From the NCBI GenBank assembly GCA_965116925.1, contig OZ220744.1, forward strand, positions 1,472,001 to 1,536,000: 64,000 nt of DNA. Direction: 5' to 3'. The first letter of the stretch is position 1. Each line of letters opens with the position of its first letter. The notes beneath the pieces were generated by a model that was not told where the DNA came from, ran no database searches, and saw only the letters and a program-made list of their open reading frames with translations. Origin of the DNA: Candidatus Poribacteria bacterium. Lineage in GTDB: Bacteria; Poribacteria; WGA-4E; PCPOR2b. Both the position numbers and the translations under genes were made by a program. Positions 3,261-63,852 of this stretch are shown one piece after another.

Positions 3261-4175
3261 ATGAATCTTGTTTCACTAAAAAACTGGTCTACAGAGGATA
3301 TTATTGAGGTTGTTGAGGGCAGCATCGCAATCAAAAACAATCCAGAACGATATGCGGATACTACCAGTCGGCGTAGTCTCGCTATGCTATTCCAGAAGAC
3401 CTCAACCCGAACCCGCTGTGCTGGGGAAGTCGGTATGACTCAATTGGGTGGCCATGCAGTTTATCTGGATTGGCGTACCACTAATTTCGCGCTTGCTGAC
3501 TTACGCGATGAAATTCGTGTGCTATCGGCTTACTCAGACCTTATTCTCGCTCGTTTTCTCAAACATACGGATGTCGCCAAGGCAGCCGGGAGCGCGACGG
3601 TTCCAGTTATCAACGGGTGCTGCGACCGTTATCATCCGACACAAGCACTCGGTGACTTGATGACCATACAGGAAAAATTTGGACGTATTGAAGGGATTAA
3701 ACTCACTTACATTGGAGTGCACAATAACGTATGCAATTCATTGATTACTGCCGGGCTAAAGGTGGGAATGGAAGTAACTGTCGTTGCGCCGGAGATGAAT
3801 CCTGCAGCTGTTGATGAGGAGCTTTATGAAGCAGCACGTAGAGCAGGCACTTATAAAACATCAGATCAGCTCCACCAAGCGATTGCACATAGCGACATTG
3901 TGTATACGGACACATGGGTTGATATGGAGTTTTTCACGGATCCAGCGTTTAAGGAGGAGAAGGAACGACGCATTAAGACACTTTCCCCGTATCAGTTGAA
4001 CGCAGAGTTACTCGCAGGGCAGGATGTTCTCGTTATGCACTGTTTGCCCGCCCACCGTGGTTATGAGATTTCCGGTGAAATTGTTGAAGACCCAAGATCG
4101 ATTATGTTCGATCAATCGGAGAACCGACTCCATAGTATGAAGGGATTAATACTGAAACTGTTGGGAGGCCTATGA
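3261..4175 (+). CDS. argF: Ornithine carbamoyltransferase family protein
   Basis: STRTR, HPTQ and HCLP motifs; start at ATG 3261 (the track's upstream extension runs through a MITE and the promoter). Confidence 0.85.
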   Translation: MNLVSLKNWSTEDIIEVVEGSIAIKNNPERYADTTSRRSLAMLFQKTSTRTRCAGEVGMTQLGGHAVYLDWRTTNFALADLRDEIRVLSAYSDLILARFLKHTDVAKAAGSATVPVINGCCDRYHPTQALGDLMTIQEKFGRIEGIKLTYIGVHNNVCNSLITAGLKVGMEVTVVAPEMNPAAVDEELYEAARRAGTYKTSDQLHQAIAHSDIVYTDTWVDMEFFTDPAFKEEKERRIKTLSPYQLNAELLAGQDVLVMHCLPAHRGYEISGEIVEDPRSIMFDQSENRLHSMKGLILKLLGGL

Positions 4176-5320
4176 GTTATTTCACTCATCTCGAATGCAG
4201 CCGTTGCGCCCAAACCTATGATCTCAACGTTCCACAGAACTTGTGCACGAAGTGCGGCAAACCGCTATTTTCGCGTTATGCGTTGGATAAGATCGCTCAA
4301 ACTTGGGATAAATCTTCCCTTTTGGAACGTGAGGCATCAATGTGGCGATATGCTGAACTCCTTCCTGTGATTGACTCATGCAATATTGTTTCCCTCAATG
4401 AGCCAATGACGCCGCTCCTACCAGCACAACGGCTCGCCGCCTTTTTTGGAATTGGAGCGTTGTGGGTGAAAGATGAGTCCCGTCTACCGACCGGCAGTTT
4501 TAAGGCACGCGGATTGGCAATGGCAGTTTCCAAAGCCAAAGAGCTCGGTTTGACCAAACTCGCGATCCCGTCTGCCGGTAATGCGGCGACTGCCCTATCT
4601 AGCTACGCTGCCCAAGCGGGCATGGAGGCGTATATCTTTATGCCTCAAGATGCTCCCCCGTTTAATCGTAACACTTGTCAACTGGCGGGCGCAGATGTTA
4701 CGCTTATTGACGGATTGATTACGGATGCGGGAAAAGTCGTTGCCGAGCGTAAGGAAGATGAAGGGTGGTTTGATGTTTCAACGCTCAAAGAGCCGTATCG
4801 CGTTGAGGGGAAGAAGACGATGGGGCTTGAGATTGCGGAACAGTTCAATTGGGAGCTTCCTGATGCTATCATCTACCCGACAGGTGGAGGTACGGGGATC
4901 GTCGGAATGTGGAAGGTATTTCAGGAGTTGGAAACTATCGGATGGATTGACGAAAAACGTCCGCGTATGATCTCTGTACAATCAGCGGGCTGCGCTCCAA
5001 TCGTCAAAGCGTGGCAGGAGGGTGCAGCTGAAGCCGAGTCGTGGTCAAACGCGCAGACAACCGCAGCAGGCTTGCGGGTGCCACAGGCTGTCGGTGATTT
5101 TCTGATTCTTGATGCTATCTATCAGAGCGGTGGGGCTGCAGTCGCTGTCAGCGATGATGAGATACGAGAGGCGATGGGGACCTTGGCGGCGCATGAAGGT
5201 ATTCTCGCTTGCCTTGAAGGCGCGGCAACGGTTGCCGGACTTCGCAAGCTGGTGGAGGCGGGGGAAATCCAACCCAAAGACAGAGTGGTGTTATTCAACA
5301 CAGGTGGGTATCAGGTGTAA
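4172..5320 (+). CDS. Threonine synthase family PLP enzyme
   Basis: N-terminal CxxC..CxxC, PTGSFKARG PLP lysine, SAGNAA, PTGGG; ATGA overlap with argF. Confidence 0.85.
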   Translation: MSYFTHLECSRCAQTYDLNVPQNLCTKCGKPLFSRYALDKIAQTWDKSSLLEREASMWRYAELLPVIDSCNIVSLNEPMTPLLPAQRLAAFFGIGALWVKDESRLPTGSFKARGLAMAVSKAKELGLTKLAIPSAGNAATALSSYAAQAGMEAYIFMPQDAPPFNRNTCQLAGADVTLIDGLITDAGKVVAERKEDEGWFDVSTLKEPYRVEGKKTMGLEIAEQFNWELPDAIIYPTGGGTGIVGMWKVFQELETIGWIDEKRPRMISVQSAGCAPIVKAWQEGAAEAESWSNAQTTAAGLRVPQAVGDFLILDAIYQSGGAAVAVSDDEIREAMGTLAAHEGILACLEGAATVAGLRKLVEAGEIQPKDRVVLFNTGGYQV

Positions 5321-58993: not shown

Positions 58994-60172
58994 TTACAGC
59001 ACGGCTAAAATCGCTTCTACAACATAATCCAAGTTCTTGGGCGAAAGCCCTGCCACGTTCAGGCGACCGTTTGTCGGCATGTAGATAGCATATTCTTCTC
59101 GCAACCGATCCACAGCATCTTTGGAAAGCCCGGAATAAGAGAACATCCCGTTCTGCTTGTACATGAAGCTAAAATCCACTGAGCTGCCGCCTGCGTTTAA
59201 GCCTTCCGCCAACGCCTTGCGCATACCAGAGATTCGGTCTCGCATGACTGCCAGTTCACTCTCCCATTCCTGTCTTAGCGTGTCAGAGGCGAGCACCGCC
59301 GCAATGATGCGCGAGCCATGTAGAGGTGGGTTGGAATAGTTGGCACGGATGATTCGCATGACTTGAGACTTGACCCGTTCAGCAGTTTCCACATCAGCCG
59401 TAACAACATAGAATCCGCCGATTCGCTCCCCATAAAGCCCAAAGTTTTTGGAATAGGAGTTTGCGACTAGCATCTGATGACCTTCAGCGAGAAAATGACG
59501 GACTGCCATTGCATCTTCATCAATGCCGCGTCCAAACCCTTGATACGCGAAATCAAATACGGGCAGCAGCCCCTGCGTCTTGATGGCTGTGGAGATTTCC
59601 TTCCAATCCACAGGTGTTGGATCGAGTCCGGTTGGGTTGTGGCAACAGGCGTGAAGTAGGATTGGGCTTCCGCTGGGGATGGATTTAATGACTTCGATCA
59701 TGCGCGACTTGGTAAACTCCCTGCGCTTTGCATCATAGTAGGGATATGATGCGACCTCCAGACCAGCCCTTGCAAAAACTTGGTTGTGATTTGCCCAAGT
59801 TGGATCCGGAATGTAGATGACTTGGCTTCCGATTTGGGCGAGAAACTCGGCAGCGAGTCGGACACCGGCTGTTCCGCCGGGTGCTTGCGCCCCGAAAATA
59901 TTGTCTTGTTCCGTATCGAATACCAATTTGATGGAATGCTTCACGTATTCTGGGTCGCCATCTTGAGAGAGGTACTCCTTATCCATACCTTCCGTGAGGA
60001 TTTGCCCCTCTGCTTTCCTGACAGCTGCAAGCACAAGCGGCTGGAGGTCATCGGTCTTGTAGGCACCAATACTCAAGTTTACTTTGTTTGACCGCGGATC
60101 CGCTTTGAAAGCCGCGTTAAGTCCCAAGATGGGATCGGGGGGTGCCATTTCTATTGTGTCGAAAAAATTCAT
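58994..60172 (-). CDS. aspC: Aspartate/aromatic amino acid aminotransferase (class Ia)
   Basis: PPDPILG, HACCHNPTG, DFAYQGF, SYSKNFGLYGER. Confidence 0.92.
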   Translation of the reverse strand: MNFFDTIEMAPPDPILGLNAAFKADPRSNKVNLSIGAYKTDDLQPLVLAAVRKAEGQILTEGMDKEYLSQDGDPEYVKHSIKLVFDTEQDNIFGAQAPGGTAGVRLAAEFLAQIGSQVIYIPDPTWANHNQVFARAGLEVASYPYYDAKRREFTKSRMIEVIKSIPSGSPILLHACCHNPTGLDPTPVDWKEISTAIKTQGLLPVFDFAYQGFGRGIDEDAMAVRHFLAEGHQMLVANSYSKNFGLYGERIGGFYVVTADVETAERVKSQVMRIIRANYSNPPLHGSRIIAAVLASDTLRQEWESELAVMRDRISGMRKALAEGLNAGGSSVDFSFMYKQNGMFSYSGLSKDAVDRLREEYAIYMPTNGRLNVAGLSPKNLDYVVEAILAVL

Positions 60173-60248: not shown

Positions 60249-61481
60249 TTAGAGCGTGGTCATCAATTTTCGGAATGCGTTCAGTTGGGGTTGAATTACA
60301 TGAGGTTCAGGCACTCGTCGCTCAAGTGCTTCAATGGTCTTCAGTCCGTTGCCCGTGATGCTGACGACAATGCGCTCATCTCGACTGATGTGTCCACTTT
60401 CGATTAGCTTTTTCGCCACTGCGAGCGTGACACCGCCAGCTGTTTCAGTGAAGATACCTTCCGTCGCCGCAAGGAGCTTGATTGCTTCGACGATTTCATC
60501 ATCACTCGCATGTTCGCCGTGTCCACCCGAATTCCGCACCGTATCCGCAGCATAAATTCCGTCAGCGGGATTACCGATCGCAAGGGATTTGGCGATGGTA
60601 TCCGGTTTAACAGGCTTGACAAAATCGCTGCCCTCTTTGACCGTTGTAGCAATGGGGCCGCAACCTTCAGCCTGTGCGACGTGGATGCTTGTTTGTGGCT
60701 TGTCGATCAGCCCTAGCATATGAAATTCTTTCAACGCCTTGCCCACCTTTGTGATGAGTGAACCGCCTGCTGCTGGAACCACAATGTGATCCGGTGCTTC
60801 CCAACCGAGTTGCTCGATAATCTCATAGGTGAAGGTTTTGGAGCCTTCTGCGTAAAATGGACGGATGTTGATGTTAGCAAACGCCCAAGGGTAGACACCG
60901 GCGATCTCGCTGCATAGTCGGTTGACATCGTCATAATTTCCTGCGATCCCGACCACCGTTGGAGCGTAAACGAGCGAAGCTACCACTTTCCCCATCTCCA
61001 GATCGGCGGGGATAAAGATGAAACAGTTGAGGTTTGCGATTGCTGCGTTTGCCGCGACAGAGTTGGCTAGATTGCCGGTCGAGGCGCACGATACGGTGTC
61101 GAATCCAAACTCCTTTGCTTTACTTAGCGCAACTGCAACGACACGATCTTTGAAGGAGAGGGTCGGGTGACATACCGAATCATCTTTGATATATAGTGCC
61201 TCCACACCGAGCACTGCCTCTAGATTTTTGGCACGGATTAACGGGGTAAATCCCGAATGGAAGCCATCGGTCGGCTCACCATCAATTGGCAGTAGGTCGG
61301 CATAACGCCAGAGGCTTTCGGGACCTCGCTCAATGGATTCCCGCGAGATCGACCTCTGGATTACCTCGTAGTTGTAGTCTACCTCAAGGGGACCAAAACA
61401 GAACTCACATACGTGGAGTGGTTCTTTGGGATACTGCCTTCCACATTCACGACATTTCAATCCTAGTACTTTTTCTTGCAT
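60249..61481 (-). CDS. thrC: Threonine synthase family PLP enzyme (possibly a sulfhydrylase; see findings)
   Basis: CREC..CEFCFGPL, PTLSFKDR, ASTGNLA, N.RPFYAEGSKT, SLAIGNP, ITGNGLKT. Confidence 0.8.
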   Translation of the reverse strand: MQEKVLGLKCRECGRQYPKEPLHVCEFCFGPLEVDYNYEVIQRSISRESIERGPESLWRYADLLPIDGEPTDGFHSGFTPLIRAKNLEAVLGVEALYIKDDSVCHPTLSFKDRVVAVALSKAKEFGFDTVSCASTGNLANSVAANAAIANLNCFIFIPADLEMGKVVASLVYAPTVVGIAGNYDDVNRLCSEIAGVYPWAFANINIRPFYAEGSKTFTYEIIEQLGWEAPDHIVVPAAGGSLITKVGKALKEFHMLGLIDKPQTSIHVAQAEGCGPIATTVKEGSDFVKPVKPDTIAKSLAIGNPADGIYAADTVRNSGGHGEHASDDEIVEAIKLLAATEGIFTETAGGVTLAVAKKLIESGHISRDERIVVSITGNGLKTIEALERRVPEPHVIQPQLNAFRKLMTTL

Positions 61482-61585
61482 GTTCGTCTCCGTTAGTTCA
61501 AAATATAAGGAAATTCTGCTAGCAAACAGTCAGTCAATTTTACGAGACAATATCGACTGACCGTTTCGTTAAAAATGTAGACAAT

Positions 61586-61619
61586 AAAAAAGCCTATCAT
61601 CACGGCTGTGACAATAGGC
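61586..61619 (-). terminator. Attenuator terminator in the thrC-like leader
   Basis: GCCTATTGTCAC-AGCC-GTGATGATAGGC followed by TTTTTT; 12-bp stem with two G-U pairs that form only on the minus strand. Confidence 0.88.
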
Positions 61620-61665
61620 AATTCTGTCAAGTATATATGTTGTTAAAAACAATCCCAATTCATAT

Positions 61666-61803
61666 CTAAATTTGCCTATTTTCACCTTGCCCCGCACGCA
61701 TGGACACCGCAACAGCAATGCCCATGCCCGGCATGTACATAGTCATATTCGCAAAGGAAGCAAAGTGAATAATTGTGGAAAAGTTGAAGTGAGATTGCCG
61801 CAT
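61666..61803 (-). CDS. Met-rich leader peptide, 45 aa (MRQSHFNFSTIIHFASFANMTMYMPGMGIAVAVSMRAGQGENRQI)
   Basis: Five internal ATG codons clustered just 5' of the antiterminator strand; start codon uncertain. Confidence 0.6.
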   Translation of the reverse strand: MRQSHFNFSTIIHFASFANMTMYMPGMGIAVAVSMRAGQGENRQI

Positions 61804-61917
61804 CTTTCTAATTCGCCTACCTATGTTATTTATTAAAAGACCACTTAATTTTAGCATACACCCCTATATAAAGGCAAGGGAAAATTAACAATCGCTGGAG
61901 CTTGATGATTAACGTCG

Positions 61918-63852
61918 TTACGAAAGATTCTCAACCATCACCGGCTCTATAGTGTCCGCAGGCACAAATCCAAAGACCTGTGCATAAAAATAGAGTTCCG
62001 CTTCAAGTGATCGCTGGATATTCTCGCTGCGGCGGAATCCGTGCTGCTCACCTTCAAATGGGACATAAGCGACAGGCAACCCTTTCGCACGCAACGCCTC
62101 GACCATCATCTCCGCCTGATTGGGGGGAACGACTTTATCTTCGAGACCCTGAAAGAGGATCAAGGGACATGAAAGGTGATCCGTAAAGTGGATTGGTGAG
62201 CGTTCTCGGTAGAGATTCTGTTCTTCAGGATAGGGTCCAATCAAACTATCCAGATAGCGGGATTCAAACTTATGTGTGTCCCTTGTCATCGCCTCAAGGT
62301 CGCTGATTCCGTAGTAGCTGGCACCCGCTTTGAAAACGTCCCGGAAGGTCAGTGCTGAGAGTGTTGTGTAGCCGCCTGCACTTCCGCCTCGAATTGCCAG
62401 TTGATCCGCGTCCACATAGCCGTGTTCGGCGAGGTATCGCGCCCCGTTCACACAATCGTCAACGTCAACAAGACCCCACTGACCGTTGAGCCGCTGGCGA
62501 TAGGCGCGTCCATAGCCGCTGCTGCCGCCGTAGTTCACATCAAGGACAGCAATGCCGCGGCTTGTCCAGTATTGGATCTCTAGGTCGAGTGCGGTTGAAG
62601 TTGCTGAGGTCGGTCCCCCGTGGCTGATGACGAGGAGTGGGGGTAGATCATCGGCAGGTGCGGTGTAGTCACGGTTTTGTGGCGGATAGAAGAAGGCGTG
62701 AGCACTCAATCCACCTTCGGTTGGAAACTCAATTGCTTGGGGCGGTGAGAAGTATCCGGCATCAATTTTTATCTCGCTTGAACGACATACGACCTCGAGT
62801 TGTCTCGTGGCGAGGTCAAGCCGGACAATTGAGGCGGACTCTGTCGATGAACTGGCGTTGAACAGGATTCCGCCGGGGAGCACTTGCAAATTAGAAATTG
62901 ATGTGTAGGGAGTCTCAATCGAATCAAGTCTGCGTGTTACCGTGTCCAAACTTGCTAGATGCCAGACACCATCCTGCGTGTAGGTACAGATAATCTGATT
63001 GACGGAAACGAATTTATAAGTGGACATCCCAAATATCCACTGCGGTCTTCCAAACTCCGCTTCCATTTCGCATAACGGTTCGACGGTTCCATCCTGATAG
63101 CGATAGAGATTCCACCAGTTCGTTCGATCGGAAACGAAGTATAGCGTCCCATCGGGTGACCATTCGGGTTGAAAGATTGATTCATCAACACCACCTGCTA
63201 CACATTCAGTGTGGTTCAGAGATCCGTCGGCACCTATCTCACCGACCCAAAGTTCAGCACCATCCCAAGGCATATTTGGGTGGTTCCAAGTCATCCATGC
63301 CAAACGGGTGCCATCAGGACTCAGGCGAGGTGAAGAATAAAAATCGTTGCCACTGACAAGAACCCGTTGGTCGTCCGTTCCATCCAACGGAATACCCACC
63401 AATGCGTTGGTGGCTTCGCGCTCGGTATCTGTATGGTCTTCGCGTACACAGAGCAGACGGTTCCGTTCGGTATCAATAACACCATCCGCATAACGTAGAT
63501 CCGCTTCGGAGGTAATCGGTTGTGGCTCTGATCCGGTAGACTGGCGGTATAACCGCTGATCCTCAAAGTTTGAAAAGTAGACCGTTCCATCATTGACGAG
63601 GAACGCCGCACCACCGTATTCATGGACTCGCGTCCGCGCGCTGAAAATGGGTGGAGTCACATCGGTCGTTTCTCCGTCCGGGGTCCGTCGAACGATGACA
63701 TAGCGACCGTTCTCGATCGAGCGCATCTCAATCCAATAGATATCTTCTCCATCGGCTACGGCTTCTATTATTCTGCGTCCTTCCGTCGAAATCAGATCTG
63801 CGCTGATTGGGGATTTCCAAGAACCGTAGGGTGCTACCTGTGGTTGCGTCAT
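61918..63852 (-). CDS. S9 family peptidase (prolyl oligopeptidase/acylaminoacyl peptidase-like)
   Basis: [28 protein letters not shown] catalytic triad. Confidence 0.93.

Follow-up and report, generated by a model that had tools for sequence, protein, structure and literature searches.

A conserved methionine-codon leader with the layout of a classical attenuator precedes a metM-type gene in Candidatus Poribacteria

Introduction

Attenuation by translated leaders is best known from trpL, hisL, thrL, pheL, leuL and ilvL of E. coli and Salmonella, where an open reading frame rich in cognate codons is combined with alternative antiterminator and terminator helices and a putative pause hairpin. 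Methionine genes are usually controlled in other ways, by SAM riboswitches, T-boxes or repressors. One predicted leader, the Thr/Ile/Met attenuator of thrA in Pasteurellales, is said to have been put forward by Vitreschak et al. in 2004 and would, like the locus described here, use Met as a control codon in a classical attenuator; there Met is reportedly one of three signals before an aspartokinase gene, whereas here it stands alone, before a gene whose product is most likely Met-specific. Against leaders of the trpL type, the present locus has the same kinds of elements but differs in its cognate residue, in a longer ORF (45 codons), in the lack of a match to any Rfam leader family, and in an antiterminator strand that lies inside the last leader codons and pairs with a segment about 50 nt downstream.

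The principle of leader-peptide attenuation is laid out in PMC1183508, and the word methionine is absent from the accessible part of that article. In Streptomyces lividans, metL is a short upstream ORF with Met codons before the methionine locus metNIQ, as in our case, but its ORF is leaderless and contains Cys and Thr codons besides Met, and it has no intrinsic terminator and serves a transporter; it is a proposal, with no conservation or functional test described in the accessible part of the source (PMC8079986). Cysteine attenuators, comprising mycobacterial polycysteine sORFs and uORFC-8-2 before cysS, resemble the Met leader in that a stalled ribosome would sense a sulfur amino acid and, for uORFC-8-2, in that a tRNA synthetase gene follows; they differ in residue, lineage and RNA architecture, and methionine does not occur in the accessible part of PMC8632094. 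Finally, actinomycetes place metM-metO, of the same clade as the gene studied here, under a SAM-I riboswitch with the same off-when-ample logic (Hasebe et al. 2024, as relayed in the accessible parts of PMC13759103 and PMC12172450). The Poribacteria family f1 has a putatively translated leader instead of that aptamer, and metO is not adjacent.

The sequence-only reading that drew attention to the locus held that no well-characterised Met-codon attenuator is known. We likewise found no experimentally characterised classical Met-sensing attenuator in open-licence PMC and bioRxiv literature (older subscription papers on attenuation genomics fall outside this scope), but the statement needs softening in view of the Met leader proposed for S. 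lividans metNIQ (PMC8079986, accessible part). Poribacteria were not mentioned in the papers matched by one such search of these two collections.

Results

A leader with conserved in-frame methionine codons

The analysed window is a 64,000-nt stretch of a Candidatus Poribacteria genome, and positions are counted from its first letter unless a genome coordinate is given. The following elements lie upstream of a gene annotated as threonine synthase, in order of transcription:

61848..61877, minus strand: sigma70-type promoter-like site TTGCCT-N18-TAAAAT with extended -10 TG (pattern match; predicted start about 61841)
61666..61803, minus strand: leader ORF of 45 codons, MRQSHFNFSTIIHFASFANMTMYMPGMGIAVAVSMRAGQGENRQI (ORF reading and 24 aligned leaders)
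61790..61797, minus strand: 5' strand of helix A in codons 3-5, pairing with 61657-61650, a candidate anti-antiterminator arm in the untranslated leader
61699..61746, minus strand: Met control codons M20, M22, M24, M27 and M35, the initiator being 1 (alignment)
61698..61727, minus strand: hairpin B, 13 bp, -21.3 kcal/mol, containing M27 and M35, a candidate RNA-polymerase pause hairpin
61672..61685, minus strand: antiterminator strand within the last leader codons, 13 of 14 pairs with 61621-61608, -15.4 kcal/mol
61650..61657, minus strand: 3' strand of helix A directly past the stop codon, pairing with 61797-61790
61586..61619, minus strand: intrinsic terminator, 12 bp plus six U, stem 61619-61592, -16.2 kcal/mol

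The ORF runs on the minus strand from ATG 61803 to TAG 61668-61666 and contains five internal Met codons. Those five had been recognised at 61699-61746 in the sequence-only reading, correctly. That reading also implied that translation begins with the cluster's first Met, a start that was rejected, as the conserved one (ATG in 23 of the 24 aligned leaders, GTG in the other) lies 19 codons upstream. Judged by eye, the leader has only a weak SD-like sequence, and the predicted peptide had no match in NCBIfam.

Conservation was assessed in an aligned set (A3) of 24 leaders, of which 20 come from genus g1 and one each from g2, g3, g4 and g6; since most rows are from a single genus, they are not independent events. 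ATG is found at M22, M24 and M35 in all 24, at M27 in 23 and at M20 in 7, with an additional ATG at codon 33 in two, so that every leader has between four and six internal Met codons. M22 is invariant, yet both of its flanking codons vary, including the one between M22 and M24. As many as 105 of the 108 internal ATGs are in frame, bearing out the expectation that the Met codons would be conserved and in frame. The frame from the start to the antiterminator is open in 24/24 leaders (the other two frames in 15 and 14 of 24), and indels within the ORF are multiples of three, the one exception being L007, with a +1 two codons ahead of its stop. Column identity reaches 93% in the Met block, silent positions included, and 78% in the N-terminal half of the leader. 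As the Met block is conserved at silent sites and CATG is self-complementary, RNA structure contributes to the conservation of the ATGs.

At the genome Met frequency of 2.0%, at least five Met among 44 codons would be expected with P = 0.002. Ranked by single-residue clustering among 148 leader-ORF-plus-terminator candidates across the genome, the leader comes sixth and is the top Met candidate; this rank alone would fail multiple testing, and it is conservation that makes the element more than chance.

Conservation of the RNA elements

The promoter-like site, the 13-bp hairpin (61727-61698), the pairing of 61685-61672 with 61621-61608 and a 12-bp terminator with six U about 100 nt before the gene had all been described from the sequence, and all were recovered, with the site at 61877-61848 and the terminator about 105 nt from the gene ATG at 61481. 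By number alone such motifs carry little weight: three promoter-like sites were found against 2.0 +/- 1.3 in shuffles, which is not significant, and terminator-like hairpins were at chance level (1 found, 1.8 expected). Across genomes, a matching promoter pattern lies upstream of 22 of the 24 aligned orthologous leaders; between terminator and gene, no promoter-like site was found in this genome.

All helices are well preserved in the 24 leaders. The terminator is paired in 100% of cells, with 6 of its 12 pairs varying on one side only, and the outer 10 pairs of hairpin B in 99.6%, with a single G-C to C-G change in one sequence. Helix A is paired in 95.8% of cells, with one pair changed on both sides in three related sequences; when the naked RNA of this genome is folded, helix A belongs to a longer rod. 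Taken together, these three helices show two pairs changed on both sides, in four cells. The antiterminator helix, with one mismatch in 14 in this genome, is paired in 92% of cells but shows no covariation: no pair is changed on both sides, a result that 500/500 shuffles reach. An alignment of orthologs had been proposed as a check, and it thus returned the conserved Met codons but not the antiterminator covariation. At the gathering score, Rfam gave no riboswitch, T-box or leader family in positions 60500-63000 of the window (one chance snoRNA match, E 1.7) and no match at eight further loci, so neither a SAM riboswitch nor a T-box match explains the switch.

An imperfect inverted repeat at 61520-61555 (minus strand), between terminator and gene, varies among genomes. 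Similar repeat insertions part promoter from leader in L003, L008, L009 and L015. RNA data consisted of contigs from four of nine runs, and contig ends do not mark transcript ends. In runs X1-X3, from one study, contigs cover leader and upstream gene evenly, which may reflect DNA, and carry an insertion near 61510, by this inverted repeat. Run X5, also from one study, contains a contig of 170 nt that matches 61626-61795 exactly, while the sequence to either side is uncovered; a short leader RNA would look like this, but we give the contig no weight as evidence.

The downstream gene most likely encodes MetM

Two genes follow the terminator:

60249..61481, minus strand: MetM-type PLP enzyme, predicted thiocarboxylate-dependent homocysteine synthase (clade and gene context)
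58994..60172, minus strand: aspartate/aromatic aminotransferase, 77 nt downstream of metM (PRK09257 above cut-off)

The first had been described as thrC-like. By HMM this holds, for it passes the TIGR00260 thrC cut-off and is annotated accordingly, and a PDB search with the protein at E <= 1e-30 returned threonine synthases only; as a true threonine synthase it was rejected, on clade and gene context. In a quick tree, with long-branch warnings for outgroups, MetM-type proteins form one clade apart from three paralogues in this genome (SH-aLRT 99). One of these, 37% identical to the MetM-type protein, belongs to a separate hom-thrC-ask operon, named from its ORF sequences. Two more ThrC-like paralogues lie at 4172-5320 of the window (plus strand; passes PRK08197) and at G000:C1:3007063-3008190.

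Outside Poribacteria, we examined 53 homologues with 62-68% identity, 48 of them with at least 400 nt of flanking sequence. A MetO-like gene lies directly downstream in 43 of these 48, and the other five are from Aquificota (L096, L102, L104, L106, L129). SAM-I riboswitches were found upstream of 2 of 20 homologues scanned, and Nonomuraea places SAM-I, a homologue with 51.5% identity and a MetO-like gene side by side. The accessible parts of GapMind 2026 (PMC13759103) describe a MetM/MetO/Mec/MoeZ route from O-phosphohomoserine to homocysteine, and its supplement calls MetM 'often misannotated' as threonine synthase. Against a MetM function, in the accessible part of PMC12172450 a Microcystis homologue 51.6% identical to MetM acts mainly as threonine synthase/deaminase in vitro, although its induction is reversed by methionine.

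In the present genome, 99% complete, neither MetA nor MetX families were matched, and the one Cys/Met PLP enzyme is closest to Met gamma-lyase. The MetO-like carrier gene is not adjacent to metM. A ThiS-family carrier gene, whose product is 52% identical to that of Nonomuraea, is followed by a JAB gene at 187.8-188.6 kb of the genome, as part of a row of cysK-like, cysH-like, MoaD/MetO-like and JAB (Mec-like) genes at G000:C1:185818-188568; the carrier has residues beyond its GG motif. This cysK-cysH-metO-mec-like cluster is the likely sulfur-carrier supply for MetM. Clade and context make it most likely that the 'thrC' gene encodes MetM, a homocysteine synthase that depends on a sulfur carrier, and that it would supply the methionine precursor homocysteine. 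Met codons before a supposed Thr gene are then no longer puzzling, as the gene is most likely of MetM type and not a threonine synthase.

The aminotransferase follows metM at most loci in genus g1 and was not listed there in other genera, so it is possibly co-transcribed with metM in this genus only. Cobalamin-dependent methionine synthase appears to be split into four separate genes (G000:C1:4018223-4019065 and 4268972-4281478).

Distribution in Poribacteria

Among Candidatus Poribacteria, all 41 genomes searched have a close homologue of the downstream gene, and we examined the loci of the best 30 of these 41, plus five added. Within family f1 (29 genomes), 25 have a Met-rich ORF and the same terminator before the gene, namely the 24 aligned leaders and L141 from genus g14, and the hairpin and antiterminator strand are also kept in 25 of the 29. 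A covariance model built from A3 and run on 121 sampled genomes of the phylum matched 28 of them, 18/18 in f1 and 9/9 in f3 among them, with no match in f2 (0/82), f4 (0/3) or f5-f8 (0/8). A DNA search of the genome itself for a second copy returned only the element.

The leaders of f3 keep the terminator and have mostly 15-25-codon ORFs with 0-2 internal Met (the two-Met case being L224, by eye); L063 lacks a stop before the terminator and L223 lacks a clear homologous ORF. As side observations, in f3 (L023-L025, L063, L138, L218-L224) a 10-bp helix abuts the terminator, the ORF is mostly short and conserved with few Met, and a TATACT-like hexamer stands some 10 nt ahead of the ATG; the transcripts may be near-leaderless. 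In g2, g3, g4 and g6, Cys codons join the Met cluster.

Genus g5 presents a different arrangement. All four of its genomes have metG preceded by a homologous leader that contains 2-3 internal Met codons (L213-L216) and outscores the metM copy in the covariance model (4/4 genomes). These metG leaders keep M-S-M and 0-1 further Met, lack most of hairpin B, and in two of the four start with ATC. Such a leader was found at 4 of 30 metG loci, all g5, and the A3 model had no match before the other 26. The metM copies in g5 (L027, L137, L139, L140) keep antiterminator and terminator with 0-1 Met codons; one of the four has an in-frame stop, and the ORF is absent or broken in some. Cys and Tyr codons appear in another frame of these metM leaders, which may have decayed or been re-specified. 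In the present genome, no Met-rich leader was found upstream of metG, valS, a cysS-like gene, hom or cysK, nor before the four split metH parts, a second homocysteine-binding-domain gene or the Met gamma-lyase-like gene. The element is thus real and conserved, and it is tied to methionine through two different genes, metM and metG.

Sister leaders in the same genome

A degenerate terminator pattern searched against the whole genome returned four loci through five strand-wise hits, against one in the reversed control. They lie before ileS, leuS, a DAHP synthase gene and the metM-type gene. Every one of them has a leader of 41-45 codons in which Ile, Leu, Tyr/Phe/Leu or Met, respectively, is abundant, with the antiterminator strand inside the last codons. 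Because the pattern had been written from three of the four loci, only the DAHP synthase match counts as a prediction. The three sister leaders are:

G000:C1:822129-822330: Ile-rich leader of 42 codons with GTG start, antiterminator and terminator, before ileS (L142)
G000:C1:1126519-1126730: Leu-rich leader with the same terminator module, before leuS (L143)
G000:C1:6257798-6257995: Tyr/Phe/Leu-rich leader of 41 codons with terminator, before DAHP synthase (L228)

The Ile-rich leader recurs at 24 of 27 ileS loci of the family. Of 26 leuS loci, three without the motif and one with a short flank were dropped, and a Leu-rich leader was scored by a crude filter in 12 of the remaining 22, two of the 12 being in a doubtful frame.

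Folding models of the proposed switch

To model the switch, we folded just the stretch of RNA lying between the ribosome and the polymerase, ending directly past the terminator loop. In this model, each of the 24 leaders gave an antiterminator probability of 0.79-1.00 while the ribosome sat on a Met codon, whichever one, and 0.00 once it had reached the stop. This outcome is close to built in, because the strand is free whenever the ribosome stands anywhere upstream of it. The Ile, Leu and Tyr/Phe leaders switch like the Met leader. L141 does not switch (0.25 throughout), and the g5 metG leaders, with the ribosome at the stop codon, gave 0.00-0.30 for a 15-nt footprint and, for three of them, 0.5-0.8 for 12 nt. 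When pairing around the ribosome was allowed, antiterminator values for this genome dropped to 0.01-0.06 at three of its five Met positions, and L026 gave 0.00 at every one of its Met codons. Of eight leaders folded at full length, seven favour the terminator, which means that switching, if it occurs, has to be kinetic. Naked, untranslated RNA gave antiterminator probabilities of 0.00-0.21 in four of eight leaders and 0.65-1.00 in the other four.

Discussion

We consider it likely that the element acts as a transcription attenuator of the classical, ribosome-mediated kind, with charged elongator Met-tRNA as its signal and the MetM route to homocysteine under its control. Its geometry had been likened to the trp, his and thr attenuators, and the comparison is borne out at sequence level by a conserved ORF, cognate codons, a terminator and a mutually exclusive antiterminator in 24 aligned leaders. 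Transcription would start about 38 nt before the leader ATG, and the polymerase would pause past hairpin B while a ribosome catches up. With ample Met-tRNA, the ribosome would reach codons 39-45 and cover 61685-61672, and the terminator would form. With scarce Met-tRNA, it would stall at one of the five AUGs, the last of which lies 16 nt before the antiterminator strand; the strand 61685-61672 could then capture the 5' arm of the terminator before the 3' arm is made, and metM would be transcribed. MetM would convert O-phosphohomoserine to homocysteine, with sulfur from the MetO-like carrier encoded at 185.8-188.6 kb of the genome.

Among other explanations, an RNA switch that binds a protein or a ligand, such as an undescribed SAM or Met aptamer, and acts through this terminator and antiterminator, with an incidental ORF and CATG palindromes that build its helices, would account for the conservation of the Met block at nucleotide level, silent sites included, and of helices A and B with some covariation; homologous genes elsewhere do lie behind SAM-I, and the g5 and f3 leaders keep the terminator without Met clusters. 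We nevertheless regard it as unlikely. Not only is there no Rfam match, but indels keep the frame, ATGs are biased to the in-frame positions, and M22 stands outside hairpin B among variable neighbours. Furthermore, the metG copies have lost most of hairpin B, yet keep M-S-M, and the sister leaders share the terminator module with codons cognate to their own genes.

If the leader is translated, stalling might instead depend on the nascent peptide or on a general signal, for instance through an arrest peptide, an arrest induced by SAM, or a response to fMet or to sulfur status (Cys included). A 45-codon ORF is long for a sensor, residues QSHF, GIA and ENRQ are kept besides Met, Cys codons occur in the cluster of g2, g3, g4 and g6, and the f3 ORFs are conserved despite few Met. 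The non-Met residues that are conserved, however, coincide with the antiterminator and with helices A and B; in its N-terminal half the leader varies freely, at the column identity given above; and the metG copies keep Met codons but little other peptide sequence. Stalling of this kind is therefore, in our judgement, distinctly improbable.

The hairpin could also be an ordinary terminator, ending the upstream peptidase transcript or a small RNA, and the following gene a true threonine synthase that is expressed through leakage or from its own promoter. This would suit the TIGR00260 score and the commonness of such hairpins but is most improbable, given that the element accompanies metM and metG beneath different upstream genes, that a conserved promoter-like site separates peptidase and leader and none was found between terminator and gene in this genome, that just 50-55 nt separate the start of the terminator from the gene in L022, L027 and L030, which leaves almost no room for a separate promoter, and that a separate hom-thrC-ask operon exists. 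A terminator serving only the upstream S9 gene had been named as what would speak against attenuation; by a crude motif test the peptidase C-terminal motif was not found above 9 of the 24 leaders, the leader being kept there and before metG.

The attenuator reading carries a difficulty of its own. Met starvation also blocks initiation with fMet-tRNA, and a textbook attenuator would thereby be forced to terminate. Half of the leaders that we folded go to read-through by default when untranslated, which may make the element a sensor with two inputs. A joint reading, which we offer as a tentative and rather doubtful extension, is that of a portable Poribacteria cassette whose codons have been rewritten for Ile, Leu, Tyr-Phe or Met, which moved between metM and metG, and whose Met form is such a two-input sensor. 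The Met version may then replace the SAM riboswitch and sense both initiator and elongator Met-tRNA, and the Met-poor f3 leaders would sense through initiation alone.

The Met leader offers a compact test case, with the sister Ile, Leu and Tyr-Phe leaders, the Met-less g5 copies and the metG copy as natural controls, and makes testable how a ribosome can sense an amino acid that is also required to initiate its own leader. In this sponge symbiont a stalled ribosome probably signals methionine shortage. The leader also provides regulatory evidence that a widespread 'thrC' clade is most likely MetM, which would fill an apparent gap in methionine synthesis in a major sponge symbiont.
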